Shown: positions 897-59,765, counted from the first letter of the stretch. The stretch is DNA of 64,000 nucleotides from Candidatus Staskawiczbacteria bacterium (GCA_026395175.1 JAPLZF010000017.1:12017-76016); one strand, 5' to 3'. Translations and numbers: made by a program. The notes: generated from the sequence alone by a model not told the origin.

Positions 897-1755
897 TTAT
901 TGTTGTGACACTGCAATTCCATAAGGATGGTTTCCCACATTATATGTTCCTATTATGATTCCCGAGGAATTAAGTTTTGTAACAGTATTCCCATTGAAAT
1001 TACCAACCCAGACATTTCCAGAAGCGTCAGCTGTAATTCTGTAAAGAGTATTCGCAATATGGTATGTTCCTACTGCGTTTCCCGACGAGTTAAGTTTTAT
1101 AACATTGTTATCACTATTAGTAACCCAAACATTTCCGGAAGAATCAGTTGCAACGCCAGAAGGATTATTTCCCACATCATATGTTCCTATTGTGTTTCCC
1201 GAGGAGCTAAGTTTTGTAACGGTGCCATCTAATCGATTAGCAACCCAGACATTTCCAGAAGCATCAACTGCAACTCCATAAGTTTCGTTCCCTGCCGAAT
1301 ATGTTCCTACCACACTTCCTGCGGAGTTAAGTTTTGTAACAGTATTACCATTTAAACTGCCAACCCAAACATTCCCCGAAGAATCAGTTGCAACTTGCCA
1401 AGTTAAACTTCCCACATTATATGTTCCTATTGTTGCTCCTGTTGAGCCATTAAGTTTTATAACTTTATTTCCGCCCGAACTGGCAACCCAGACATTTCCT
1501 GAAGAATCAGTTGCAATACCAGAAGGATAATATCCTCCTAAACTATATGTTCCCACCACGCTTCCTGAGGAGTTAAGTTTTGTAACAGTGCCATCCATCC
1601 AATTGCCAACCCAGACATTTCCTGAAGAATCAACCGCAACTCCATCAGGATTGTTTCCCACAGGATATGTTCCTAATAAATTTCCGTTTGAACCATCAAG
1701 TTTTGTAACAGTATTATCGCTAAAATTGGCAACCCAGACAAAAATTGAACTTGGA
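897..1755 (-). repeat. C-terminal array of about 7 tandem ~126-nt (42-aa) NHL-like blade repeats
   Basis: I counted seven VTKL/VIKL-centred units by eye between IFVWVANFSDNTVTKL and the C-terminus. Confidence 0.7.
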
Positions 1756-4700
1756 GTTGCAGGCGGAGTTGCAGGCGGAGAGGCAGAACCAGTTGAGCAT
1801 TCTTTCAATGCCTTGGTTCCAGAATTGGTTTGAATTCTTATTCCGGAATCATTTGGGTCTCCCGGATTTACCAAAACCACGCCCCAAATTCCTGAATTTT
1901 CTTTAATTCTTAAAGGAGAAGTTGCAGTTCCCGGAGCTTGGCCTGCAATATGAACTGATTCAGAACCATTCCAAATGCGAAGTCCGCTGTCAGCGCAAAG
2001 AGGCGCTTGAAGAGTGGCAGCGCAAGCAGTGCTATTTCCGCATGACCATGTTGTTGTCGGAGTATTTGTTGTCGGGAAAGTTGGAGTAAATCCTTTGTTA
2101 AAATATTGCAAAGCAAACCCTGTAAAGTCTCCAAAGGAATAAGGTCCTTTTCCTACTGAATATGTTCCTAATCTGCTTCCCGATGAATCAAGTTTTGTAA
2201 CAGTGCGTCCGCCGTTGTTGCCCGCGCCCGAATTGGCAACCCAAACATTTCCATAAGCGTCAACCGCAACTCCGTAAGGATTGTTGCCAAAAGCGCCGAC
2301 TCCTGAAGAATATGTCCCTATCACATTTCCTAATGAATTAAGTTCTGTGACAGTATTATCATCAAAATTAGCAACCCAGACATTTCCTGAAGAATCAACC
2401 GCAATCCCGCGAGGATTATTTCCTACTGGATATGTTCCCAACACATTTCCCGACGAATCAAGCTTTGTGACGCTGTTACTGCCCGCATTGGCAACCCAGA
2501 CATTCCCATAAGCATTAACCGCAATTCCATAGGGATTATTTCCTACAGAAGATATTGCTATAATTGCTCCAGTGGAGCTGTTTAGTTTTGTGACGCTGTT
2601 CCCTCCGCTGTCTGTAACCCAAGCATTCCCGGAAGGGTCAACTGCAATTCCGTAAGCGCCACTTTCTACAGAATATGGGCTTCCTGAATATTGGGTTCCG
2701 TCTGAGTGAAGTTTTGTGACATTATTTCCGCCGGAATTGGCAACCCAAACATTCCCGGCTTCATCAATTGCAATTCCGCGTGGGCCATATCCCACATTAT
2801 ATGTTCCTATTGTGTTTCCCGAGGAGTCAAGTTTTGTGACGCTGTTACCGCCATTATTGGCAACCCAGACATTCCCGGAAGCATCAACCGCAACTTCTTG
2901 GGGATTATTTCCCACATTATATGTTCCAATCACATTTCCGTTTGAAATATTAAGTTTTGTGACGGTATTGTCTCCGGAATTGGCAATCCAAATGTAAGGA
3001 TTAGAAATGGAAACAGGATTTCCGTGGTTGCAGAAGTTTCCTGTGAAAGCAGTAGAACCGGCTGTATAATTTTTAGCCGCCGAACCGCAAGCGTCGGGGC
3101 AAGATATGCTATAATTTTGATGAAGCTGAAGGGTTTCGTAGTAGTTTCCTTCCACAGCGTGAAGATCTAATGTAAAGTTAATAGTGCCAGTGTCGGCAAC
3201 AGGGACCAAAAAAGGCAGGGCTGAACGATCAAAAGTCATGATGCTTTCCGTCGTATGATCAGGAGTAGCAAATGTGTGAATACAATTTTGTCCTAAGCCC
3301 GGAGAAGAGAGGCAAAAATTATAAGATAAATTCTCACAGCCATGCCCTACAGCTGATACTTGCAAATATCCTTGGCTTCCGCAAGTTAATGTGTCTACGG
3401 GACTATTTACGAACACATTAGTAATAATTGCGAAAGTAGTATTAGCTGAGTAAGTCTCGCTGTCTAAGCATGTGTTGCCTACACATTCCATTGCTTCTGC
3501 TTTTCCTGCTTTGCTTATAAAAAAGAAAGCTGTGGCTAAAACAATTAAAATAATAATCAAAATTGCCAGCAGGATTTTTCTTTTGAGAAGTTTTTTTATA
3601 AAAATAATGCCAACAAAAAGTATCAGGACAAAAATAACTGCAAGAATTATTCTTAGAGAGAAATAATCTCTTGCGTCCATTTTGTCGGATTGCTTTGCAT
3701 AGTCAGAAGAAAGGTTTGTTTTGTAGGAAGCCAAAGTTTTACCATCTTTTGACGCGGTTATTTCTGCCCTCATTGCTAAGGCATTTGCCAGGGCTTTTAC
3801 AGAAATGGTTTTTGTGTATCCAGCATTGAAATCTGTCTTGTCTGAATAATTGGCAACAAGCTTGTTGTTTTGGTTGAATATTTTAACATTTAAGTCCGCT
3901 GGTCCTCCGCCGGAAACTTTATTGGTCATAATGTCAGTCGGACTGCCGGCATAATTTATAGTTATGTTTAATGTTTGTCCTTCTGCAATGCTCGATTTGT
4001 CGCTGGCAACAGAATCTATGGTAACAATATCGCCCCCAATTATATATCTGAAATTAACCGTAGTGGCTCTTTTTACATTATTGCTGTCTAAAAATGATAT
4101 TTCGCCAACATACACTTGAGGCGCGTAATTGAAAGCGGGCAAGTCTATGGAAATTTTTGATTCTGCATTTGGATTTATTGTTATTGTTTTGTCTTTGAAA
4201 GATGAAAGTATGTTATTCGGTTCCGGTCTTTTGTAAATATTTACAGAAGGAGTGATGGTAATTTTGTCTGCGGTATTATTTTCTAAAACAACATTCAAAA
4301 CAGCTTTCTGGCCGGCATAAATTGTCGGGCCTTCCTGAACATTGAAAGCAGTGTCTCCCACATAAACGCCGGCGCTTTTAATTTCTGCCATTCCGGTTCC
4401 ACCGGCAATATTGAGCATTGCATCGTCCCAGCCCATAGAACTGCCATTGTCAAGCATTGCCACAACTTCTATCCCAAGATTGGCTCCGCTTATTGACTCT
4501 GGAATTTTGTATGTAAAATTGACAACTTTTTTCTCGTTTCCAGCCAAAAAAATCGGGCCGTACATTATTGAGTTGTCATATTGCTTTTGAGGAATAGTGT
4601 TTTTATAATTTCCCATTAGAAACACTTCATAGCGAACATTCGGAACGCTCAGGTTTTTTGCATTCCAAAGAGTGAAAGTTCCGGTAACGGTTTCACCTGC

Positions 4701-4859
4701 CCTGTAATCTGTTTTTGAAAGTTTGAGGTCTTTTACATAAACCTCTATTGGGTTTACAATCACCAAAGCATTTGCTTTTGAATTTGCCGACAAAAACGTT
4801 GCAAAACAAAACAGGCAAAAAATTATGAAAACAGATACCTTTTTTTTATTCAACAGCAT
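897..4859 (-). CDS. Giant surface protein (1320 aa): signal peptide, Ig/CARDB-like N-terminal region, central TM hairpin, two NHL-type beta-propeller arrays
   Basis: Single ORF. N-terminal signal VSVFIIFCLFCFATFLSANSKANA. Two adjacent hydrophobic helices near aa 400-452. Fourteen ~42-aa repeats of the form GNVWVAN..N.VTKL...G..(I/V)GTY.VG..P.G(I/V)A(V/T)D. Confidence 0.85.
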   Translation of the reverse strand: MLLNKKKVSVFIIFCLFCFATFLSANSKANALVIVNPIEVYVKDLKLSKTDYRAGETVTGTFTLWNAKNLSVPNVRYEVFLMGNYKNTIPQKQYDNSIMYGPIFLAGNEKKVVNFTYKIPESISGANLGIEVVAMLDNGSSMGWDDAMLNIAGGTGMAEIKSAGVYVGDTAFNVQEGPTIYAGQKAVLNVVLENNTADKITITPSVNIYKRPEPNNILSSFKDKTITINPNAESKISIDLPAFNYAPQVYVGEISFLDSNNVKRATTVNFRYIIGGDIVTIDSVASDKSSIAEGQTLNITINYAGSPTDIMTNKVSGGGPADLNVKIFNQNNKLVANYSDKTDFNAGYTKTISVKALANALAMRAEITASKDGKTLASYKTNLSSDYAKQSDKMDARDYFSLRIILAVIFVLILFVGIIFIKKLLKRKILLAILIIILIVLATAFFFISKAGKAEAMECVGNTCLDSETYSANTTFAIITNVFVNSPVDTLTCGSQGYLQVSAVGHGCENLSYNFCLSSPGLGQNCIHTFATPDHTTESIMTFDRSALPFLVPVADTGTINFTLDLHAVEGNYYETLQLHQNYSISCPDACGSAAKNYTAGSTAFTGNFCNHGNPVSISNPYIWIANSGDNTVTKLNISNGNVIGTYNVGNNPQEVAVDASGNVWVANNGGNSVTKLDSSGNTIGTYNVGYGPRGIAIDEAGNVWVANSGGNNVTKLHSDGTQYSGSPYSVESGAYGIAVDPSGNAWVTDSGGNSVTKLNSSTGAIIAISSVGNNPYGIAVNAYGNVWVANAGSNSVTKLDSSGNVLGTYPVGNNPRGIAVDSSGNVWVANFDDNTVTELNSLGNVIGTYSSGVGAFGNNPYGVAVDAYGNVWVANSGAGNNGGRTVTKLDSSGSRLGTYSVGKGPYSFGDFTGFALQYFNKGFTPTFPTTNTPTTTWSCGNSTACAATLQAPLCADSGLRIWNGSESVHIAGQAPGTATSPLRIKENSGIWGVVLVNPGDPNDSGIRIQTNSGTKALKECSTGSASPPATPPATPSSIFVWVANFSDNTVTKLDGSNGNLLGTYPVGNNPDGVAVDSSGNVWVGNWMDGTVTKLNSSGSVVGTYSLGGYYPSGIATDSSGNVWVASSGGNKVIKLNGSTGATIGTYNVGSLTWQVATDSSGNVWVGSLNGNTVTKLNSAGSVVGTYSAGNETYGVAVDASGNVWVANRLDGTVTKLSSSGNTIGTYDVGNNPSGVATDSSGNVWVTNSDNNVIKLNSSGNAVGTYHIANTLYRITADASGNVWVGNFNGNTVTKLNSSGIIIGTYNVGNHPYGIAVSQQ
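2135..3005 (-). repeat. First array of about 7 tandem ~126-nt NHL-like blade repeats
   Basis: Seven VTKL/VTEL-centred units from NPYIWIANSGDNTVTKL to RTVTKLDSSGSRLGTYSVG. A Cys-rich insert and a PPATPPATP linker (1756-2134) separate this array from the second one. Confidence 0.7.
3492..3660 (-). other. Central transmembrane hairpin inside the 1320-aa protein
   Basis: FSLRIILAVIFVLILFVGIIFI, then KKLLKRK, then ILLAILIIILIVLATAFFFISKAGKAEA. This reads as an anchor-like helix, a basic loop, and a signal-peptide-like helix ending in AEA directly before Met457 (codon at 3491-3489). Confidence 0.7.
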
Positions 4860-4867
4860 TTTTTTAT

Positions 4868-6106
4868 TTAAGGATTAATGTCGGTTCTTAACCACAATTG
4901 GCCTGTGGCAGGGCTGGATGGGTCTGACCCATTTCTTGTTTCTATAATTAAACCGCCGGTTGTTTTGGTCAGTCCGCCGACTATTTCAAGTTTTGTTGCC
5001 GGAGTTGCTGTTCCAATTCCAACATTGCCGAAATTTACTGCATTGTGTCCTTCGGCGTTGTCGCCAGCACCAAGCGTGTCGGACAATGTGTCTATGAGAT
5101 TTCCTGTTCCGCTACCAGATGCGTCTGCCCCGCAAATAATATTTCCGCTTGCATCTGTCCACAGCTTATTGTTGCTGGTGGTTCCATTGCAAATAAGGCT
5201 GGTTTTAATTCCGCTTGTTCCGTTGCCGGTATAAATTTCCAGTTTTGCTGATGGCGTTGCTGTTCCAATTCCAACATTGACTGCAAAACCGCCGGTTCCG
5301 CCCAGCACGAGCATATTAGAACCGCCAACTTTAGCATAGTAGCCAATTGCCGTAGCATTGGTGAGGTTGCTCGATAAAACATCAGCGTTGTTGCCAATTG
5401 CCGTGTTATTGCTGCCTGTGGTGTTTGATTGAAGGGAATAATAACCGCTGGCGGTGTTGCCATTGCCTGCGGTGTTGGCGCTAAGAGAGAAAAAACCATC
5501 GGCGGTGTTGTTGGAACCAGTGGTATTGTAATAGAGAGCGCTTTGGCCGTCGGCGATGTTTTGATGTCCTGTGGTGTTGGAAAAGAGAGCATTTTTGCCA
5601 TTGGCGGTGTTTTCCCAACCTGTGGTGTTGGAGAAAAGGGCCTGGTAGCCGTTGGCGGTGTTTTCTGAACCGGTGGTGTTGGAATGCAGAGCCTGATAAC
5701 CAATTGCCAAACTGGTTTTTGCGTCGTCAAAAAAATTGATTAAATCAGCAACCTGCAAAAGGTTATTGGGAGTTGCTGTTCCAATTCCAACTTTGCCCAA
5801 AGGAATAAGCAAAGCATTTACTGCTCCTCCTGTGTTTAATATGGCTCCGCCGGTAGAACCAATAGTTCCTTCTATGTCTAATGTGGTGCCCAAAGTTCCA
5901 TTTCCTCCTATACTCAACGTTCCCAGCTTATATTGTCCTGCACTGCTGACATTCAAGGGAGCAGGGGCATTGTTTCCCGGTGGCGCGGCTGTTGGATTTT
6001 GCCAAGCGGCAAAAGAAACAGAAACAAGCGCAAAGCAGAGAACCGAAATGCTGAAAACCAGATAAGCTGATTTTGCTAATGAAATTTTTTTGTTATTTTT
6101 TTTCAT
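4868..6106 (-). CDS. Secreted fibre/adhesin-like protein (412 aa) with Asn/Thr/Gly repeats
   Basis: N-terminal signal anchor. Six tandem ~17-aa repeats (SNTTGxxNTAxGxxALF). Three copies of VGIGTATPxxxLE(I/V), a motif I associate with phage tail-fibre and trimeric-adhesin proteins. Confidence 0.75.
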   Translation of the reverse strand: MKKNNKKISLAKSAYLVFSISVLCFALVSVSFAAWQNPTAAPPGNNAPAPLNVSSAGQYKLGTLSIGGNGTLGTTLDIEGTIGSTGGAILNTGGAVNALLIPLGKVGIGTATPNNLLQVADLINFFDDAKTSLAIGYQALHSNTTGSENTANGYQALFSNTTGWENTANGKNALFSNTTGHQNIADGQSALYYNTTGSNNTADGFFSLSANTAGNGNTASGYYSLQSNTTGSNNTAIGNNADVLSSNLTNATAIGYYAKVGGSNMLVLGGTGGFAVNVGIGTATPSAKLEIYTGNGTSGIKTSLICNGTTSNNKLWTDASGNIICGADASGSGTGNLIDTLSDTLGAGDNAEGHNAVNFGNVGIGTATPATKLEIVGGLTKTTGGLIIETRNGSDPSSPATGQLWLRTDINP

Positions 6107-6133
6107 ATTTTTATATTTATAATTTTAATATTT

Positions 6134-6442
6134 TTATTTTGGAGCGCTTAAACTTTTTAAAATATCTTCAGAAATTTTTGTCTGCTTTTGATTTTCAGAA
6201 GGAGCGGATAAATTTTTTATAACTTCTTTTAAAACAGGTTGCGGCGTTTCTTTGCTTTCGGGAGCTGAGAGAGATTTTATTATTTCTTCTTTGGTCAGTT
6301 TTTCTTCAGGAGTTTTTGTTTTTGCATTTTTGTTTGAAAAGTAAAAAAACAGCCCGCCAAAAATAAGCAGAGCTATAATTAAAATTGCTCCTACTAATAG
6401 AAGAAGCTTTCTATTTGACCCAATTGATCCGATAGTTTCCAT
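6134..6442 (-). CDS. Small membrane-anchored protein with three (I/L)K(S/N)LSAP repeats
   Basis: TM helix LLLLVGAILIIALLIFGGLFFYF followed by the repeats IKSLSAPESK, IKNLSAPSEN and LKSLSAPK. First gene of the minus-strand surface operon. Confidence 0.6.
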   Translation of the reverse strand: METIGSIGSNRKLLLLVGAILIIALLIFGGLFFYFSNKNAKTKTPEEKLTKEEIIKSLSAPESKETPQPVLKEVIKNLSAPSENQKQTKISEDILKSLSAPK

Positions 6443-6610
6443 TTAGTTATTTTACCTTATTTTTTTATTGCAAGCAAAAGGTCAAGGGTGTGGATAACTT
6501 CGAGGATTCGCTTTAGCGAAGCCGAGACACTGAGCCGTAAGGCGAAGTGCTAGTTGCAAAAAACAATTGCTTGTGTTAAACTGAAAAAGTATAGTTTTAA
6601 TATAAAAAAT

Positions 6611-6853
6611 ATGGCAGTTCCAAGACATAAACATACGAGGTCAAAAGTGGGCCAGAGCCGAATGCACAAGAACATAAAGCATGTGTATTTGAATGTTTGC
6701 CCAAAATGCAAAAAGCCTGTTTTATCGCACACGGTTTGCTTGAATTGCGGGTTTTACAAAGGAAAAGAGGTGATAAACGTTTTGGCAAAACTTACCAAAA
6801 AAGAACAGAAAATAAAGCAAAAGGAAATAAAAACAGCAGAAAACCCAAAGTAA
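6611..6853 (+). CDS. rpmF: 50S ribosomal protein L32
   Basis: [19 protein letters not shown] plus a CPKC...CLNC zinc ribbon. The ORF-track start at 6554 is trimmed to the ATG at 6611. Lys-rich C-terminal tail. Confidence 0.9.
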
Positions 6854-6863
6854 TTTTAAATTT

Positions 6864-7289
6864 ATGGCATCTAGGCATCTTTCAAGAAGCATAGTTTTGC
6901 AAAGTTTATACGAGTGGGATTTTTACAATAAAAAACCAGCTTTAAAAGATATTGTCGAAAGAGATATCAAAGATTTTGGTCCTGGCCTGGAAGAATTAGA
7001 CTTTATATATGCGTTGTCTACAGGAATTGAAAGCCACATAGATAAAATTGATAAAATTATTGAACAGGCAGCTCCCGAGTGGCCAATTGCCCAAATTTCA
7101 ATGGTTGACAGGAATGTTTTGAGAATTGGATTGTTTGAACTTTTATACACAGACAAAAAGGAAGTTCCGCCAAAAGTTGCCATAAACGAATCAATTGAAT
7201 TGGCAAAAACATTTTCCGGGCCAACTTCCGGAAAATTTATTAATGGAGTTTTGGGAACAGTTTACAAACAAATTGAAAATAAAGAATAA
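6864..7289 (+). CDS. nusB: Transcription antitermination factor NusB
   Basis: [17 protein letters not shown] and [25 protein letters not shown] are typical of NusB. Confidence 0.85.
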
Positions 7290-7981
7290 TGATGGATTTT
7301 GAAATTTTTGAAAAAAAATTAGGATTAAAATTTAACAATAAAGACCTTTTAAAGCAGGCATTCACGCACAGGTCTTATTTGAATGAAAATCCCGATTTTA
7401 AATTAGACCACAACGAAAGGCTGGAATTTTTGGGAGACGCAGTTACCGAATTAATTATTACAGACCATTTATATAGAGATTATCCTGAAAAAGCAGAAGG
7501 GGAATTGACCAACTGGCGAGCGGCCTTAGTAAATGCTAAAATGATGACCAGCGTGGCAGAAGAACTTGGGTTTAATGATTTTCTTTTGCTGTCTCGCGGA
7601 GAATCAAAAGAAATGGGCAAGGCAAGAGCATATATTTTGGCAAACACATTTGAAGCATTATTGGGCGCATTATACTTGGATTCCGGATATAAGGCTTGTG
7701 ATGAATTCTTGCAAAAATATTTATTGAAAAATTTGGGAGAAATTATAAAAGACGGTTCGTATAAAGACGCAAAATCAAAATTTCAGGAAAAGGCTCAGGA
7801 AAAAGTTTCTATTACGCCAAATTATAAAGTTGTGAAAGAATCCGGACCTGACCACGACAAAATTTTTATAGTGGGAGTATTTCTTGGAGAACAGATTATT
7901 GCCGAAGGAAAAGGTTCGTCAAAACAAGAAGCAGAAGAATCAGCAGCCAAGTTGGCGCTGGAAGTAAAAAAGTGGAATTAA
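7289..7981 (+). CDS. rnc: Ribonuclease III
   Basis: RNase III signature NERLEFLGDAV. C-terminal dsRNA-binding domain (GPDHDKIFIVGV...GKGSSKQEAEESAA). Confidence 0.92.
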   Translation: MMDFEIFEKKLGLKFNNKDLLKQAFTHRSYLNENPDFKLDHNERLEFLGDAVTELIITDHLYRDYPEKAEGELTNWRAALVNAKMMTSVAEELGFNDFLLLSRGESKEMGKARAYILANTFEALLGALYLDSGYKACDEFLQKYLLKNLGEIIKDGSYKDAKSKFQEKAQEKVSITPNYKVVKESGPDHDKIFIVGVFLGEQIIAEGKGSSKQEAEESAAKLALEVKKWN

Positions 7982-8003
7982 AAAATAAAATAAAATTTAA
8001 AAA

Positions 8004-8405
8004 ATGCTTACAATAAGACTTACACGAAAAGGAAAAAAGAATCAGCCATTTTTTAGGGTGGTTTTAATTGATAAAAGGCGTTCAACAAAAGGCGGAAGAT
8101 CTGTTGAAGATTTGGGTTATGTTGACCCTTTGAAAAAAAGGAAAAGCTTTAACAAAGAAAGAATTTTATACTGGATTTCAAAAGGCGCGCAAACCAGTGC
8201 AACAATACATAATTTACTGGTTTCAGAAAAAATTATTGATGCCAAAAAAATTCACGTTTCAAGATTGTCAAAAAAAGCAGAAGCAAAAATAATTGAAACT
8301 AAAAAAGTTGAAGAAGCATCCGCCTCCGCCAAGGCTTCGGCGGACAAGGAAGCAGAGAAGCCGGTTGAAGAAGTAAAAGCAGAGGAGCCAGCTCCAGCAG
8401 AATAA
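8004..8405 (+). CDS. rpsP: 30S ribosomal protein S16 with charged C-terminal extension
   Basis: MLTIRLTRKGKKNQPFFRVVLIDKRRSTKGGRSVEDLGYVDP. Confidence 0.92.
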   Translation: MLTIRLTRKGKKNQPFFRVVLIDKRRSTKGGRSVEDLGYVDPLKKRKSFNKERILYWISKGAQTSATIHNLLVSEKIIDAKKIHVSRLSKKAEAKIIETKKVEEASASAKASADKEAEKPVEEVKAEEPAPAE

Positions 8406-10093: not shown

Positions 10094-10819
10094 ATGATAA
10101 AGTTTGATGTGATAACAATTTTTCCGGAGATGTTTAGTTCTTATTTAAGAGAGAGCTTGATTTCGCGCGCGCAAGAAAAAAAATTTATAAAAATAAATTT
10201 GCATAATTTAAGAAAGTGGACAAACGATGCGCACAAAACAGTTGACGATAGGCCGTTTGGCGGGGGATTGGGAATGGTTTTAAAAGTAGAGCCAATTTTT
10301 AAAGCAGTAACCCAAATAAAAGGCACTCCTACCCTCCGACGCGTAGGAGTGAGTGAAAAAAAGAAAACAAAGGTGATACTTTTCACGCCAAGAGGAAAAA
10401 AGTTTGACCAAAAGTTGGCATATAAATTTTCAAAGTTAGACCAAATAATTTTTATTTGCGGAAGATATGAAGGCGTTGACGAACGTGTTGCGCAAAAAAT
10501 TGCAGACATGGAAATTTCAATTGGGGATTATGACTTAATGGGTGGGGAATTGCCGGCAATGGTTTGCATTGAAACAATTTCAAGATTGGTGCCCGGAGTT
10601 ATTGGTAAAAAGCAATTGTTGAAAGAAAGAATTTCAAAAACAGGCGGATTTTTAGAATATGCGCAATATACCCGCCCTGAAATATTCAGGGCGAGGCTCG
10701 CCAAAGGCGACAAGGCTAAAACAGAAAGTTGGCGAGTTCCAAAAGTTTTAATATCGGGTAATCACAAAAAAATTGACGAGTGGAAAAAAGCGCACGGAAA
10801 GGTTATTGAAGAAAATTAA
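10094..10819 (+). CDS. trmD: tRNA (guanine37-N1)-methyltransferase
   Basis: MIKFDVITIFPEMF, GRYEGVDERV and DYDLMGGELPAMV. Confidence 0.92.
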   Translation: MIKFDVITIFPEMFSSYLRESLISRAQEKKFIKINLHNLRKWTNDAHKTVDDRPFGGGLGMVLKVEPIFKAVTQIKGTPTLRRVGVSEKKKTKVILFTPRGKKFDQKLAYKFSKLDQIIFICGRYEGVDERVAQKIADMEISIGDYDLMGGELPAMVCIETISRLVPGVIGKKQLLKERISKTGGFLEYAQYTRPEIFRARLAKGDKAKTESWRVPKVLISGNHKKIDEWKKAHGKVIEEN

Positions 10820-12418: not shown

Positions 12419-14173
12419 ATGAAAGTTGAATTACAGAAGCTGAAAAAATTTATTTTGGAAGCCGGCTTGATCGAAGCAAAAAAATTTGATGAAGCCATGG
12501 AAGAAAGCGAAAAATCCAAAAAGGGGATCAGCGAAGTTTTGATTTCCAAGGGTTTGATTACAGAAAAAGAACTGATAAAAATCGAGGCATACATTTTGGG
12601 AATCCCTTTTATAAATTTGGAAGAAGAAATTATTCCGCTGGACGTTTTAAAAATAATTCCTGAAACAATTGCCAGGGCCCACAACATAATTGCTTTCAAT
12701 AAAAAAGAAAACAATCTTGAAGTTGCCATGCTCGACCCGGAAGATTTGAGGACCATTGAGTTTATAAAAAAAGCCGCTCCTTCCCTGAAAATTTTAGCGC
12801 GGCTGACCACTTCAGAGGGCATAAAAAATGCCTTGGCGCAATATCAGGAAACTTTGGAAACGGAATTCGGAGATATTATGAAGAGCGGGGCCGGCGGAAT
12901 CAAGCATATAAAAATTGACGAATCAATCAGCGGAAAGAAAGAAGAATTGCAGAAAGTGGCCGAAGAAGTGTCTATAATAAGAGTTGTCGATACTTTAATG
13001 AAGCACGCCATTCTGCAGAGAACTTCCGATGTGCATATTGAGCCCTTGGAAAAGGAAGTTATTATACGCTATCGAATTGACGGGATTTTGCATGATGTTA
13101 TGTCTTTGCCCATAAATACGGCTTCCGGAATTGTTGCCAGGATAAAAGTTTTGTCCAATTTGAAGCTTGACGAGCACAGGCTTCCGCAGGACGGCAGATT
13201 TAAAATTGAAACAGAGGATTTCAAATATTCTGTCAGGGTTTCTGTTTTGCCTGTTTTGAACGGAGAAAAAATAGTGATGAGGCTTTTGGCGGAAGATAAC
13301 AAAGATTATACTTTGGAAGATTTGGGATTTGCCGGTTTAGGGCTGGAAAAAGTCCGTCACAGCCTGCTGAAAACAACAGGAATGGTGCTGATTACAGGCC
13401 CGACGGGCTCAGGAAAAACAACAACGCTTTACGCCATGATGGGAATTATAAACACAACCAGCGTAAATATTTCCACGGTGGAAGACCCAATTGAATACAG
13501 AATGCCAAGAATCAACCAGACGCAGATTAATGACAAAATAGATTTAACTTTTGCGTCGGGATTAAGGGCTTTGGTGAGGCAGGACCCGAATATTATTATG
13601 GTTGGAGAAATAAGAGACCGCGAAACAGCGGATTTGGCGATTAATGCGGCTTTGACAGGCCACTTGGTTTTGTCGACTTTGCACACAACCGAGGCCGGAG
13701 GAGCCATACCGCGTTTGATTGACATGGGAACAGAACCGTTTTTGCTGTCTTCAACTTTAAACATAATTATTGGGCAGAGGCTGGTGAGAAAATTTTACGG
13801 CGATAAGGAAAAATATAAGCTGAACGCGGCTGATTTGGAAAATCTGCAGAAATATTGCGATATGGAAAGAATCGTAAATTTGTTGAAAGAGGAAAAAATA
13901 TTGAAACAAAAGGACACAATCAAGGATTTGGAACTTTACAGGCCAAAACCTTCTAAAAATTCTTCTTCCGGATACAAGGGCAGAATTGGAATCTTTGAAA
14001 TTTTGTCGGTGAACGACGCGATAAAAAATCTGATAAATAAAAAAGCTTCGACGGTGGAAATCACCAAGCAGGCAATACAGGACGGAATGCGGACGATGGC
14101 GGAAGACGGATTTATAAAAGCCGCCCAAGGAATAACTTCATTGGAAGAAGTTTTGAGGGTGATAATGGATTAA
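12419..14173 (+). CDS. pilB: Type IV pilus assembly ATPase PilB (GspE family)
   Basis: Walker A GPTGSGKTTT, Walker B IIMVGEIRD, His box LTGHLVLSTLHT, and N-terminal T2SSE_N-like region. Confidence 0.9.
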   Translation: MKVELQKLKKFILEAGLIEAKKFDEAMEESEKSKKGISEVLISKGLITEKELIKIEAYILGIPFINLEEEIIPLDVLKIIPETIARAHNIIAFNKKENNLEVAMLDPEDLRTIEFIKKAAPSLKILARLTTSEGIKNALAQYQETLETEFGDIMKSGAGGIKHIKIDESISGKKEELQKVAEEVSIIRVVDTLMKHAILQRTSDVHIEPLEKEVIIRYRIDGILHDVMSLPINTASGIVARIKVLSNLKLDEHRLPQDGRFKIETEDFKYSVRVSVLPVLNGEKIVMRLLAEDNKDYTLEDLGFAGLGLEKVRHSLLKTTGMVLITGPTGSGKTTTLYAMMGIINTTSVNISTVEDPIEYRMPRINQTQINDKIDLTFASGLRALVRQDPNIIMVGEIRDRETADLAINAALTGHLVLSTLHTTEAGGAIPRLIDMGTEPFLLSSTLNIIIGQRLVRKFYGDKEKYKLNAADLENLQKYCDMERIVNLLKEEKILKQKDTIKDLELYRPKPSKNSSSGYKGRIGIFEILSVNDAIKNLINKKASTVEITKQAIQDGMRTMAEDGFIKAAQGITSLEEVLRVIMD

Positions 14174-14183
14174 AATACAGGAT

Positions 14184-14729
14184 ATGGAAAATAAAGTAGA
14201 AAATATTTTAGAAAAATATAAGGGAAAAACTGCTGGTATTTTTGTTGACGAAGCAAATTTATTTTATTCTCAAAAAGAACTCGGTTGGCATATAGATTGG
14301 CAGAAGTTTTCAGACTTTTTGAATAATTTTTGTAAAATAGAAATTAAAAGATACTACATGGGAATGCCACTTGATAAAAAAGCCTATGAACAAAATATTT
14401 TGATAAAAAATCGAATAGAAAGGTCTGGGTTTCAGGTTATTACCAAACCGATAAAAAAGATTTATTTAGACAATAAAAAGATTGATTTTAAAAATAAGTG
14501 TAATTTTGATGTTGAAATTACTAAAGATGTTATCAGAAATTTAGAAAAAGTTGACTTGGTTTTTGTGGCGAGTGGCGACAGCGATTTCGTTGCTTTGAGA
14601 AACGATATAATTTACAATAAAAAAGGTTTTATTTTTATATGCTTCGAGAGAAATGTGGCATGGGAGATAAGAAAATCTTATCACGTGTTTTTTGATGATA
14701 TCAGAAACGACATAGAGTATAAAAAATAA
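14184..14729 (+). CDS. NYN/LabA-like domain protein (putative RNase)
   Basis: GIFVDEANLFY and VFVASGDSDFVAL acidic motifs typical of LabA/NYN. Wedged between pilB and pilC. Confidence 0.65.
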   Translation: MENKVENILEKYKGKTAGIFVDEANLFYSQKELGWHIDWQKFSDFLNNFCKIEIKRYYMGMPLDKKAYEQNILIKNRIERSGFQVITKPIKKIYLDNKKIDFKNKCNFDVEITKDVIRNLEKVDLVFVASGDSDFVALRNDIIYNKKGFIFICFERNVAWEIRKSYHVFFDDIRNDIEYKK

Positions 14730-14845
14730 TAAAAAAAGCCCTGGAAAAAATCCAGGGTGAAGTAACTAAATTAAGTATAGCAAATCGAGAGCCGTTGTCA
14801 AGTTTTTGGCGCTAAAATAAAAATTATTATTAAATTATTAAAACT

Positions 14846-15463
14846 ATGCAGAAAGAAAAACAAAAAGGAATTTCTACTTTAACCGGCATAATAATTATAA
14901 TTGTTGTCGCAGTTGTTCTCTTCGGCGGAGTTTTTGCTTATCAATATTTTACAGCCAAATCACAGCAAAATAGTAAGTTTTTTGGCTCGAGCCAAAAAAC
15001 CAACCAAACACAAACCCAGACCACCGCTGGCTGGAAAACATATACAAATAGTCAGTATGGCTACGAAATTAAATATCCAGAGGATTGGAGAAAAAGTGGG
15101 ATAGAACCTCCAACTTGGATTTCTCCTGTAGAAGGAACCGTATATATCAGCATAGTTTCGTATCCGAAAATCGGATTAGGCACAATTATTAATGGTTGTC
15201 CAAATATTGCCGGCACAGATGTTTCCAGCGAAATAGCAGGAAAAGAAAAAGTAGGCGGTTTAGAATTTTGTAAATATACAGAAATCCAATCAGGTATGGG
15301 CGGAGCAAAATTTCAATCGTTTTCTTATTTTATTACAAATGATAATTACGGATATTTTATTGATTTAACAGCGCCATATAAGCCAAATCAAACAGAAAGC
15401 GATTTTAAATATGAATTGAATATTTTTGACCAAATGGTTTCTACTTTTAAATTTACGAAATAA
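14846..15463 (+). CDS. Hypothetical membrane-anchored extracytoplasmic protein
   Basis: N-terminal TM ISTLTGIIIIIVVAVVLFGGVFAYQYF, then WKTYTNSQYGYEIKYPEDW. Confidence 0.6.
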   Translation: MQKEKQKGISTLTGIIIIIVVAVVLFGGVFAYQYFTAKSQQNSKFFGSSQKTNQTQTQTTAGWKTYTNSQYGYEIKYPEDWRKSGIEPPTWISPVEGTVYISIVSYPKIGLGTIINGCPNIAGTDVSSEIAGKEKVGGLEFCKYTEIQSGMGGAKFQSFSYFITNDNYGYFIDLTAPYKPNQTESDFKYELNIFDQMVSTFKFTK

Positions 15464-15480
15464 TAAATAAAAATTAAATA

Positions 15481-16695
15481 ATGGCAAATTTTTCATATAC
15501 TGCAAAATCGCTCGACGGCGAAATAAAAACAGGAAATTCAGACGCCGAAAACATAAGAGAATTGGCCCAGAGCCTGAAAGGAGAAGGGCTGGTTTTGGTT
15601 AAGGCAAATATTAAAAAAGAGAAAAAGAAAAGCATTTTTAATTTTTCTTTTTTGTCCGGCAAAGTTTCCATATCTGAAAAAATGCTGATGACAAGGAATT
15701 TGTGGATTATGGTTTCCACCGGGCTTTCGCTTGTCAAAGGATTTTCTATTTTGTCGGCGCAGTCAAAAAGCAAAAAAATGAAAGAAGCCCTTTTGGACAT
15801 AGGGCAGGAAGTAAGCAAGGGAAAAACTTTGTCCGACGCCTTCAAAAAATATCCCGATGTTTTTTCCGAACTTTTCCAGAATATGATAAAGGCGGGCGAA
15901 GAATCGGGAACATTGGAAGATGTCCTGAAAGTATTGTCATTGCAGTTGGAAAAGGAAAAAGAGATGAATTCTAAAATAAAGAACGCGCTGATTTATCCGG
16001 CTATTTTAATAACTACAATGCTGATTGTCGGAGTTATGCTGGCAATTTTCGTGCTTCCGAAAATGAACACTTTTTTTATGAGCCTGCATACGAAGCTTCC
16101 CATAACCACAATAATAATATTGGGCTCGGGAAATTTTCTTTTGAAATACTGGTATCTTTTCTTAATAGCGCTGATTATCCTGATTTTTGTTTTTTTGACA
16201 TTGATAAGAACAAAAAAAGGCAGATTTTTTATAGATACAGCTTTGCTGAAAATACCGTTTGTCTCCTCGTTGGTCAAAAAAAGCAACTCGGCTTCATTAA
16301 TCAGGTCGTTAAGCTCGCTTTTGGCTTCGGGAGTTCCTTTAATAAAATGCCTGGAAATAACTTCCGGAACCTTAAGTAATTTTTATTTCAAGCAGGCGCT
16401 TTACGGAGCGTCCAAAAAAATAGAAAAAGGGGAAAAATTATTTGTCAGCTTGAAACCCTATCAGAATCTTTTTCCTTACGGCGCCATAGAAATGATTGAA
16501 ATTGGAGAGGAAACAGGCAAAACTTCCTTAATTTTAAAAAAATTGGCGGAGTTTTACGAAGAAGAAGTATCCAACGCCGCTGAAAACCTCTCTGTGATAA
16601 TTGAGCCGGTTTTGATAGTTTTTATCGGAGCTACAGTCGGCGTTTTCGCGGTTTCCATAATAGGGCCGTTATACTCAAGTTTAGGAAGTATATAA
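15481..16695 (+). CDS. pilC: Type IV pilus platform protein PilC (GspF family)
   Basis: Two T2SSF-type repeats (GEESGTLEDVL and GEETGKTSLIL) and three TM segments. Confidence 0.88.
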   Translation: MANFSYTAKSLDGEIKTGNSDAENIRELAQSLKGEGLVLVKANIKKEKKKSIFNFSFLSGKVSISEKMLMTRNLWIMVSTGLSLVKGFSILSAQSKSKKMKEALLDIGQEVSKGKTLSDAFKKYPDVFSELFQNMIKAGEESGTLEDVLKVLSLQLEKEKEMNSKIKNALIYPAILITTMLIVGVMLAIFVLPKMNTFFMSLHTKLPITTIIILGSGNFLLKYWYLFLIALIILIFVFLTLIRTKKGRFFIDTALLKIPFVSSLVKKSNSASLIRSLSSLLASGVPLIKCLEITSGTLSNFYFKQALYGASKKIEKGEKLFVSLKPYQNLFPYGAIEMIEIGEETGKTSLILKKLAEFYEEEVSNAAENLSVIIEPVLIVFIGATVGVFAVSIIGPLYSSLGSI

Positions 16696-16709
16696 TCCTA
16701 ATTTTAAAT

Positions 16710-45718: not shown

Positions 45719-47734
45719 ATGAGCAAAACATTTCATAAGAGTTTTGTATTTTTGTTTGCCGCAATTTTTGCAATGTGCGGTTTTTTTATTGCCAGCGATG
45801 TACTCGCAGCAAGAACCCTTAATTCTGTAACGATTAATGGGGTAAGCAGTGTTTTTGTTAAGGGAGGACAAGCAGTTACCATCGCCGTAACCGTTACATT
45901 GTCTGGTACATCCTCAAACTCATGGTATTCCACGAGGTATCAGATTGGTACTTTGGGATGGGTTTGTGTTGATACTCCCGATCATCTTTCTGGTCACAAT
46001 GGAACCTATACAGAGACGTTTTCAATAACAGCACCAGTAGCACAAGGAAACTATAATCTTGCTATTACCGCACACGGTCGAGATAATACCTGTAATACTT
46101 CTTACAGCACAAACCAGATCACATTAACGAATGGAATTATTGTTGATAATACCGCGCCGACGCTGAATTTACCTGCCGATATAATCCAGCAGGCAACGGG
46201 GATAACTGGTAAAATAATAGATTACACAGCAACCGCCAATGATTCCTATCCAGCACATCCTGCAGTAAATTGCACTCCGCCGTCTGGCTCAGTCTTTCCA
46301 ATTGGACTAACAACTGTGAATTGTTCTGCGACCGATAATGCAGGCAATATTTCAAATGGCAGTTTTAAGGTTGAAATAACAAAATTAGACCAGACAATTT
46401 CTGTGACAAAATCTGCGCCGGTGAGCGCGATTTATGGAGATAATTTTGATGTTTCGGCGAGTGCGACTTCAGGATTAGATGTTGTCATCACAACTTCGGG
46501 TTCTTGTTTTGGTGATGGGACAAATTCTGCGACAATCACAATGACAAGTGGCGCAGGAACTTGCGCAGTGCATTATAATCAAGCGGGTGATCCGTCTTAT
46601 AATCCTGCTCCCGAAGTTATAGAAAATACAACAGCTCAACCAAAAATTATAAATGTTACCGCTGATGCTAAAGGCAAAAATTACGGCGACGCCGGCTCGG
46701 CTTTGACTTATGTAAATGATCCGTTAGTCGGCAGTGATTCTTTTACCGGCGACCTATCCCGCGACCCTGGCGAAGATGTTGGTGTCTACGCCATCACGCA
46801 AGGAACATTAGCTTTAAGCGGTAATTATACTTTAAATTATGTTCCAGCAAACTTAACGATTTCGCAGTTTATTCCTGTCATCAATGTTATAATTGAAGCT
46901 AAAAACAAAACCTACGGCGATGCCGACCCTGCTTTGACTTATACTTTTTCTCCTGCGTTGTATGACGGAGATACTTTCAGCGGTTCGTTGAGCCGGGCAA
47001 GCGGAGAAGATGTCGGTTTTTATGTCATTGCTCAAGGCACTTTAACGGCTGGTCCTAATTATAATTTAAGTTTTGCAGGAGCCGACCTAACAATTAATCA
47101 GAAAGATATTACCACAACCGCCGATGTCAAAAACAAAACCTACGGCGATGCCGACCCGGCATTTACTTACCAAATTACCAGCGGTTCGTTGGTCGGTAGT
47201 GATGCTTTTTCCGGTGACCTAACTCGCAATGCAGGTGAAGATGTCGGCATTTACGCTATCACGCAAGGAACGTTGTCTGCCGGTCCTAATTATAATTTAA
47301 GTTTTGCAGGAGCCGACCTAATAATTAATCAGAAAGATATTACTGTTACTGCCAATCCTAAAAATAAAATTTACAATGATGCCGACCCGGCTTTGACTTA
47401 CACCAGTGACCCGTTAGCTTTTGGCGATTCTTTTACTGGCGCGTTAATCCGCGATGACGGCGAAAGCGTTGGCAGTTATGCTATCAACCAAGGAACATTA
47501 AGCGCTGGGACAAATTATAATATAACATTTGTTCCTTCTATTTTTACTATTATGCCTTTGACAGGCGGAAGCGGAGGCAACGGATACAACAAACCATCGG
47601 AAATCAAAACTAATGATTTTGATATGTTGATTGCAGATTGGGGCAAAAATGGATCAAGCGCAGAGGATTTAAATCATGACGGCGTGGTTGATGAATATGA
47701 TTTGGCATTATTAATGTCCAATTGGAGCTTATAA
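45719..47734 (+). CDS. Secreted adhesin-like protein: HYR-like domain, five MBG-type repeats, C-terminal dockerin-like module
   Basis: Signal peptide. HYR-like DNTAPTLNLPADI...CSATDNAGN. Five ~75-aa repeats (KNKTYGDADPALTY...GEDVG.YAI.QGTL....NY.L.....LTI), with near-identical ~60-nt stretches starting about 47051 and 47282. C-terminal DLNHDGVVDEYDLALLMSNW. Confidence 0.75.
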   Translation: MSKTFHKSFVFLFAAIFAMCGFFIASDVLAARTLNSVTINGVSSVFVKGGQAVTIAVTVTLSGTSSNSWYSTRYQIGTLGWVCVDTPDHLSGHNGTYTETFSITAPVAQGNYNLAITAHGRDNTCNTSYSTNQITLTNGIIVDNTAPTLNLPADIIQQATGITGKIIDYTATANDSYPAHPAVNCTPPSGSVFPIGLTTVNCSATDNAGNISNGSFKVEITKLDQTISVTKSAPVSAIYGDNFDVSASATSGLDVVITTSGSCFGDGTNSATITMTSGAGTCAVHYNQAGDPSYNPAPEVIENTTAQPKIINVTADAKGKNYGDAGSALTYVNDPLVGSDSFTGDLSRDPGEDVGVYAITQGTLALSGNYTLNYVPANLTISQFIPVINVIIEAKNKTYGDADPALTYTFSPALYDGDTFSGSLSRASGEDVGFYVIAQGTLTAGPNYNLSFAGADLTINQKDITTTADVKNKTYGDADPAFTYQITSGSLVGSDAFSGDLTRNAGEDVGIYAITQGTLSAGPNYNLSFAGADLIINQKDITVTANPKNKIYNDADPALTYTSDPLAFGDSFTGALIRDDGESVGSYAINQGTLSAGTNYNITFVPSIFTIMPLTGGSGGNGYNKPSEIKTNDFDMLIADWGKNGSSAEDLNHDGVVDEYDLALLMSNWSL

Positions 47735-59681: not shown

Positions 59682-59754
59682 CGCTCGGCAATCAAATTTT
59701 TTTTCGCTAAGTCCTCGCTTCGCTGCGGAGCTCAAAAAAATTTATTGCCTCGCT
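59682..59754 (+). repeat. 73-nt palindromic intergenic element, copy 3 (11 nt before the ATG at 59766)
   Basis: Identical to copy 2. Confidence 0.9.
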
Positions 59755-59765
59755 TTATTTCAGAC

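Follow-up and report, generated by a model that had tools for sequence, protein, structure and literature searches.

Envelope precursors of flaviviruses and pestiviruses (prM-E, E1-E2), bunyaviruses (Gn-Gc) and alphaviruses (PE2-6K-E1) carry two ectodomains on the same side of the membrane, held on a helical hairpin whose second helix doubles as the internal signal for the protein downstream, with a site obeying the (-3,-1) rule of signal peptidases after it, one translation product thereby giving a stoichiometric pair. A bacterial single-gene precursor of this kind, the cytochrome b-c1 precursor FbcH of Bradyrhizobium japonicum, was reportedly described by Thony-Meyer and colleagues in about 1989-1991; an internal signal peptide past its transmembrane segments is said to be cut by signal peptidase, yielding two membrane-associated subunits. 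In most other bacteria, cytochromes b and c1 are made from two adjacent genes. A stalk anchored in membrane or wall and paired with an exported outer subunit, encoded by adjacent genes or released from a precursor cleaved once exported, is also found in the surface layers (S-layers) of Sulfolobus (SlaB/SlaA) and Clostridioides difficile (low- and high-molecular-weight subunits, LMW/HMW, of SlpA). Here, a gene with a comparable layout is described from the Patescibacteria, which are abundant and mostly attached to host cells, and whose attachment is poorly understood. It occupies positions 897-4859 of the minus strand in a 64,000-nucleotide stretch of DNA from Candidatus Staskawiczbacteria bacterium (GCA_026395175.1, JAPLZF010000017.1:12017-76016; the whole stretch is hereafter called the window) and is a complete coding sequence of 1320 amino acids plus stop, with an ATG start, according to the ORF list and the translation. 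The gene is a member, carrying a new payload, of a large uncharacterised family of surface proteins, and its sequence indicates that it probably gives rise both to an anchor in the membrane and to an exported part for binding, which has two beta-propellers.

The likeness to these systems is one of layout. The viral precursors are proteins of eukaryotic viruses processed by the signal peptidase complex of the endoplasmic reticulum, whereas the protein in the window is bacterial, its cleavage is inferred, and it has no sequence or fold relationship to them. FbcH differs in belonging to a respiratory complex and in its polytopic upstream part, and SlpA in being cut by the cysteine protease Cwp84 and not at an internal signal peptide; neither these two nor SlaB/SlaA are homologous to the family. 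The S-layer pairs form a lattice, and none is evidenced here. In literature searches, no paper was found that dealt with internal signal peptides or polyproteins of bacteria, with FbcH, or with NHL proteins or pili of Patescibacteria, and a further search brought up only papers on Saccharibacteria pili.

Hydropathy analysis (Kyte-Doolittle, 19-residue windows) picked out three strongly hydrophobic stretches in the protein, at the N-terminus and at about residues 400-421 and 429-448. The first belongs to a Sec-type signal peptide (residues 1-31, 4767-4859; these and the following gene coordinates are on the minus strand), also evident in the family columns, with a textbook n-h-c layout: the segment is MLLNKKKVSVFIIFCLFCFATFLSANSKANA, with LV after the cut, and comprises a KKK n-region, an 18-residue h-region and a c-region SKANA that precedes L. 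The other two, with means of up to 3.2-3.3, make up a hairpin. TM1 (residues 400-421, 3597-3662), a putative stop-transfer anchor of the N-terminal half, corresponds to conserved hydrophobic columns 399-416 of 156 aligned sequences; a predicted cytoplasmic basic loop, KKLLKRK (residues 422-428, 3576-3596), follows with a net charge of +5; TM2 (residues 429-448, 3516-3575; conserved columns 424-443) resembles the h-region of a signal peptide and is placed internally; and the c-region SKAGKAEA (residues 449-456, 3492-3515), defined from the family columns, contains two overlapping (-3,-1) sites, A454/E455 and A456/M457. An AlphaFold model shows a helical hairpin at 402-448. These elements had been described in an earlier note made from the sequence alone, and all of them were found: a normal N-terminal signal peptide, an anchor-like helix, the KKLLKRK loop and a second helix with an AEA motif just before Met457, whose codon is indeed at 3489-3491. 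The note's topology, with both large domains outside the cell, agrees with the positive-inside rule and with the export signals of both halves.

Relatives were then sought. Residues 1-621, used as a query, retrieved 13 proteins, 800-1000 amino acids long and 28-52% identical, one of them labelled Candidatus Paceibacterota; in 13/13 the hairpin lay within a single chain. A profile of residues 1-592 (A2), run against 1.84 billion representatives of 50% identity clusters, matched 1885 of them at E<=1e-3, including 538 with E<=1e-30; the best match (P0014; E=3.9e-240, profile positions 1-584) was a protein of this public library identical to that of the window, which had no exact counterpart in an index of contigs. 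Column statistics were taken from 156 aligned sequences, for which the best 150 of the 1885 profile matches were inspected, a sample in which lower-scoring genes with only the N-half or the C-half are under-represented; a narrower alignment gave six related loci. The N-domain and both helices stood in one polypeptide in 150 of the 156, 123 of those with the full post-hairpin domain, and this single-gene layout was kept down to 25-30% identity. Medians for the basic loop were 8 residues in length and +3 in net charge, the charge being +2 or more in 145 of 151 sequences. The conserved core consists, in order, of a Sec signal peptide, three Ig-like beta-sandwiches, TM1, the basic loop, TM2 and a beta-sandwich with a Cys-x-Asn motif, and is followed by a variable C-terminal payload. 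The window protein conforms to the family pattern of TM1, short Lys/Arg loop, TM2 and A/V-x-A motif (residues 400-456) and carries the family invariants R271-Y272-I273, C508 and N510. Relatives were labelled Paceibacterota, Kaiserbacteria, Taylorbacteria or Patescibacteria, and a Pfam scan of nine of them was almost blank. The core is thus an uncharacterised and very large family of Patescibacteria surface proteins for which Pfam and NCBIfam hold no model.

The model of residues 1-592, built on the 13-sequence alignment (mean pLDDT 72), resolved the N-domain into three beta-sandwich, Ig-like domains (residues 40-152, 158-274 and 280-382, 3714-4742), with pLDDT mostly 75-95, and a further beta-sandwich at 478-584, of lower confidence, within the post-hairpin domain (residues 457-592, 3084-3491). 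The latter is delimited by the A1 and A2 alignments, contains the invariant C508 and N510, and also comes after the signal peptide in stand-alone C-halves. No Pfam family scored above threshold on residues 1-620, the best, fn3_5 (E=0.016), being under its cut-off, and NCBIfam gave no model covering these residues. The Ig part of an earlier description of the N-terminal region as Ig/CARDB-like agrees with the modelled sandwiches, whereas neither CARDB nor any other named Ig-like Pfam family matched residues 32-390 significantly; the fold is that of a generic beta-sandwich. Foldseek comparison of the core model with the PDB yielded only generic macroglobulin/Ig arrays at TM ~0.2, and no functional information.

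The segment following TM2 was analyzed for the signature of signal peptidase, with the cleavage site at the N-terminus of each protein as a built-in positive control. Five to six residues past the hydrophobic core of TM2, the -3 column contains A54/V36/T20/L12/I6/S4 (one of these six residues in 132 of 144 sequences) and the -1 column A97 and G9 of 146. At the N-terminal site, position -3 contains A37/V36/T26/I10 and position -1 is Ala in 108 of 142; judged from these columns, the compositions of the two sites are almost the same. Ala makes up 7.2% of the family proteins as background, and the (-3,-1) rule was satisfied in 70% of sequences at the aligned internal column versus 25% at random positions. 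All the sequence features of internal-signal precursors of the FbcH and viral prM-E types are present: a predicted stop-transfer helix upstream, a short positive loop, a hydrophobic h-region, and a small residue at each of -3 and -1.

Three short profile matches (P0091, P0118 and P0123) were complete genes within contigs. P0091, found in two independent samples (L010 and L011), has the C-terminus '...LVYVTVKTGKNNK' followed by TAA; two codons past this stop, in the same frame, an ATG starts a 1002-aa gene that opens with MKRINLLLILAITIILSGVAIQPEKVGA before a T, the junction reading '...KTGKNNK', stop, 'IMKRINLLLIL...VGA' and then T. One base change at the stop codon would restore a typical basic loop, and the downstream gene has payload domains in common with family members. 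P0118 (L012, five contigs) ends in '...LVGWKIKKRYA' and is overlapped by 8 nt by the next gene, whose product, beginning MRRYRV...APIATHA before an F, aligns to profile positions 437-559 (E=3e-7). The frame shift falls within eight consecutive A (A8), and the window gene has an A7 homopolymer (3591-3597) in the corresponding position; it begins in the last TM1 codon, one base before the loop, and runs on into the first Lys codons (I-K-K). Loss of one A from this tract would cause the window protein to stop 13 codons later, after TM1; the payload half might in this way be switched by slippage. P0123, also an N-half, carries its anchor at the C-terminus and has unrelated sequence downstream. In the genome of P0008 (L001), a 692-aa stand-alone C-half lies just upstream of a full-length member. 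Its N-terminus, MKFLVKSNFLNKQAFLISASSFCAILIICLTLFVNINKSDA followed by YVID, aligns to the loop, TM2 and the AxA motif (profile positions 420-584, E=1.5e-25), and it is collinear with the entire C-half of six family members. Because a homologue of TM2 opens this protein, that homologue is expected to work as an ordinary N-terminal signal peptide, and a C-half with its own signal peptide would be placed outside the cell independently. A profile of the post-hairpin domain only (A4), run to gauge how many stand-alone C-halves exist, retrieved nothing at E<=1e-5 from 5.8 billion sequences.

On the evidence of these sequences, the seam is real in evolutionary terms, and is ancient or recurrent in the family and not the scar of one genome. 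The earlier note had seen in it an upstream anchor gene fused to a downstream gene with a signal peptide, and was right about its nature, given that in rare relatives the break falls precisely within the basic loop. It misjudged the age and the specificity of the seam: the orthologue comparison that it proposed did disclose rare two-gene forms, yet found one chain in 150 of 156 sequences with the anchor and signal features kept, and the same one-gene layout is the norm among at least 1885 representatives. Nor does Met457 stand as the relic of a start codon, since its column is not conserved (V40/I21/A16); on the same ground its use as an internal start codon was ruled out.

The payload of the window protein is composite. 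Propeller 1 (residues 617-909, 2133-3011; from Pfam, blade count and model) has seven NHL/YVTN blades and ends in the cap motif SFGDFTGFALQYF; a small domain (residues 941-1022, 1794-2039; C955...C1021; identified with phmmer) and a Pro/Thr linker, PPATPPATP (residues 1028-1036, 1752-1778; translation, and a 12-nt repeat detected by Tandem Repeats Finder (TRF) at 1753-1780), separate it from propeller 2 (residues 1037-1320, 900-1751; BLASTP and model), which has seven blades and no cap motif. The chain ends after the closing strand of propeller 2. The 14 blade units are 38-45 residues long, share the anchor [VIA]W[VI]...V[TI][KE]L and are divided equally between residues 623-909 and 1041-1320, and the two propellers are 57% identical (BLASTP). 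Pfam scores were over the gathering cut-offs for NHL (PF01436; E=2e-31, 106.8 bits against 20) and Vgb_lyase (E=1.9e-39, 135.6 bits against 50; residues 622-876 matching profile positions 25-282 of 290), and SGL gave 137.8 bits. Single-sequence AlphaFold prediction of residues 612-1320 produced a pair of closed propellers, both with 28 strands, at pLDDT ~85-93 (~90 for propeller 2), the region between them not being resolved; these ~40-aa repeats place the payload among NHL/YVTN propellers. Among single domains, Foldseek matched 1l0q_A best, with an rmsd of 1.6 A across 299 columns; this is a YVTN propeller with seven blades from an S-layer protein of Methanosarcina. The solved chains closest in sequence were PknD-derived 'Pizza' designs, 1l0q (E=2.4e-33) and the PknD sensor domain 1rwi (3.3e-28), Vgb lyase being far weaker (1.6e-17), and the NCBIfam models for Vgb(A) and Vgb(B) scored 60.4 and 62.5 bits without reaching their cut-off of 600. 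With sensor and S-layer proteins as nearest chains and such low Vgb scores, the propellers look like binding modules and not like lyases, and they are most likely ligand- or cell-binding modules. Like the M. mazei S-layer protein (1L0Q) and M. tuberculosis PknD (1RWI), they would present blades of ~40-42 residues outside the cytoplasm; the window protein differs from both in having two propellers per chain joined to a hairpin core, and the propeller of PknD is six-bladed, against seven units here.

No NHL blades were found in the other family sequences (0/155), and none of the 120 propeller homologues listed, of more than 2700 matches, contained the family core. P0157 and P0158, the latter labelled Minisyncoccia, come from the same bacterial class and likewise have two propellers; they share the cap motif and are 50-52% identical. 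Several propeller homologues are fusions to a prepilin N-terminal methylation motif (N_methyl). The 941-1022 domain matched, with phmmer, the extreme C-terminus of the closest relatives (P0002 895-978 of 980, P0004 717-804 of 806, P0005 918-997 of 1001), suggesting that the Pro/Thr linker and propeller 2 were appended past an ancestral C-terminus; from these alignments, propeller 2 appears to have been added later, by a junction more recent than the hairpin. The window protein also contains a Cys-containing stretch at residues 585-620. The 7+7 blades in two propellers had been anticipated in the earlier note and are agreed upon by unit count, Pfam and the structure model, and the insert and PPATPPATP linker lie where it had placed them. 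Calling the insert Cys-rich overstated it (four Cys in ~130 residues). The supposed near-identical DNA repeats of ~126 nt turned out to be more divergent: TRF detected periods of 120-123 nt with 66-73% matches, and the best blade pair was 78% identical, ungapped, at the DNA level. The longest exact repeat was 33 nt (2372-2404 and 1607-1639), and recombination between its copies would remove 255 residues in frame. Since this single exact repeat is all that would support it, recombination-driven change in blade copy number was rejected. A 365-aa NHL-repeat protein encoded elsewhere in the window (22018-23115, plus strand) was considered as propeller donor and likewise rejected (BLASTP E=0.01); it is not closely related to the target propellers.

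Family genes frequently lie near genes for type IV pili. A family gene is immediately upstream of pilB-pilC-pilins in the loci of P0003, P0008 and P0007 and in L003 and L004, and pilus genes are found within ~1-5 kb of one in L007, L012 and L016. The plus strand of the window carries rpmF, nusB, rnc, rpsP and trmD and then a type IV pilus cluster (12419-24245) with PilB (12419-14173), an NYN-domain protein, PilC (15481-16695), a 1091-aa LamG/DUF2341 protein, an N_methyl pilin (20001-20612), a 461-aa unknown protein, the NHL-repeat protein mentioned above and PilM (23178-24245). The linkage is frequent, not universal, and is suggestive of a role in pilus-associated adhesion.

Combined, the data lead us to favour, with some confidence and far from certainty, a hairpin-anchored surface protein with both halves exported, a variable binding payload, and a TM2 that acts as an internal signal peptide and is probably cleaved. 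The N-domain would be exported through the N-terminal signal peptide; TM1 would stop transfer, leaving the Lys/Arg loop in the cytoplasm as the positive-inside rule predicts family-wide; and TM2, homologous to the N-terminal signal peptides of stand-alone C-halves, would restart export and place the C-part outside. Signal peptidase I would then probably cut at the conserved A/V-x-A site past TM2, to give a hairpin-anchored N-terminal subunit and a C-terminal subunit either freed or held non-covalently, the same pair of products as made by the rare split two-gene relatives. The propellers would bind a ligand or a cell, and their fold relatives, the variability of the payload and synteny suggest that they take part in attachment to a host cell or surface, possibly in connection with pili. 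Several observations weigh against this reading. Cleavage is inferred from the conserved motif; the (-3,-1) rule failed at the exact aligned column in 46 of 151 sequences; and the hydrophobic stretch of TM2 is ~20 residues long, long h-regions reportedly favouring uncleaved signal-anchors in eukaryotic model systems (PMC2120157). As to the pilus, the target is 7.5 kb from PilB in the window, on the opposite strand and with housekeeping genes between; no pilus genes lie within 8 kb of P0010 and P0011; no PilB, PilC or PilM homologues were detected anywhere in the L005, L006 and L008 loci; and pilus-adjacent cases may share ancestry and so not be independent.

It is possible, if rather doubtful, that TM2 remains uncleaved as a permanent reverse signal-anchor, the two ectodomains standing side by side on a single chain and the small residues serving to pack the helix end. 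An h-region of this length is typical of anchors, and long h-regions reportedly disfavour cleavage in model studies (PMC2120157); the rule fails at the aligned column in 30% of the family, and in the AlphaFold model the two helices form a regular hairpin. Set against this, the internal -3/-1 composition mirrors that of the N-terminal cleavage site in the same proteins, the homologous segment is an ordinary N-terminal signal peptide in split and stand-alone C-halves, and the undisputed N-terminal signal peptide of the window protein is itself similarly long, with 18 residues. A recent fusion, or an assembly or sequencing artefact of one genome, in which an anchor gene without its former stop codon ran on into a secreted propeller gene at Met457, is highly improbable. 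The local succession of anchor, signal peptide and Met does give that appearance, and split relatives show that two-gene forms can exist; it is contradicted by the one-gene layout of 150 of 156 diverse sequences, by the lack of conservation of Met457, by the presence of an identical protein in the public library, and by the post-hairpin domain, which belongs to the conserved core and not to the propeller payload. Quite unlikely, too, is that the propellers are surface-displayed enzymes, akin to streptogramin lyase or lactonase, instead of binding modules. The Pfam Vgb_lyase and SGL matches and the name 'streptogramin lyase' on homologues speak for enzymes, but the NCBIfam Vgb models score 60-62 bits where 600 is required, the closest solved sequences are PknD-derived designs, the PknD sensor and an S-layer protein, with Vgb weaker, the near-idealised blades have no obvious singular active-site blade, and the homologues include pilin fusions and many adhesin-like arrangements.

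Should TM2 be cleaved as we favour, the family could be regarded, tentatively, as a bacterial 'polyprotein' from which signal peptidase I would yield a hairpin-anchored Ig-like stalk and an exchangeable adhesin, here a double propeller, in a 1:1 ratio, acting together with type IV pili when the bacterium attaches to host cells; the A-tract (A7 in the window gene, A8 in L012) could then turn the adhesin half on or off, or switch between fused and split forms. Use of the internal site would make this an unusually widespread bacterial case of a processing best known from enveloped viruses, and the naturally split relatives offer a built-in control that renders the idea directly testable. Independently of cleavage, a large surface-protein family is defined (at least 1885 clusters at 50% identity, without a Pfam or NCBIfam model) in which a fixed membrane-anchoring core is combined with a swappable outer payload, often beside pilus genes. 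For annotation, mid-protein pairs of anchor and signal in this family should not be counted as mis-assemblies or recent fusions.

Full-length paralogues were also observed in tandem, at 4220-7873 and 8001-10913 of L013 (P0017 and P0007, upstream of pilB) and at 5126-8188 and 8265-10421 of L006, a Kaiserbacteria contig; the family grows by local duplication with divergence of the payload. The proteins P0001, P0003, P0006, P0007 and P0008 and the second gene (gene B) of L010 share a C-terminal tail '...GG.V.E[QHRN]' (GGAVQEQ, GGSVEH, GGNGREI), which may be a domain end or a sorting signal. The C-terminus of the window protein differs (GIAVSQQ), and its closest relatives finish in CPCP. In P0003 and P0008 (L001 481-1864), parts of a diversity-generating retroelement (bAvd and reverse transcriptase) lie upstream of the family gene, at a distance of 4-7 kb, and in L012 a bAvd gene (10156-10512) has pilC on one side and a pilin-like gene on the other; the ORFs scanned in the window included no such element. 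The LamG protein of the window is homologous, over its first ~290 residues, to the product of the N_methyl pilin-like gene lying after bAvd in L012.

The gene content of the window is typical of a Patescibacteria genome, and the target lies within a run of minus-strand genes for secreted proteins. The upstream gene (4868-6106, minus strand), separated from the target by 8 nt, encodes 412 residues with a signal peptide and tandem repeats of ~17 residues, 'NTTG..NTA.G' (TRF period 51 at 5501-5695); it had no Pfam or NCBIfam match, and its product looks like a fibre or adhesin-head repeat protein. On the downstream side, a gene at 1-~880 (minus strand) that runs off the window start encodes a secreted protein with a signal peptide, 'GWAWS.NIGWI.F' repeats and a Cys motif, GVCGSANG...SGSGPWTWTC, similar to one in the relative P0001. 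Farther away on the plus strand, a VirD4/TraG-like coupling ATPase (T4SS-DNA_transf, DUF87) is encoded at 59745-62246, near the window end, and a 671-aa surface protein with MBG/HYR domains at 45719-47734.

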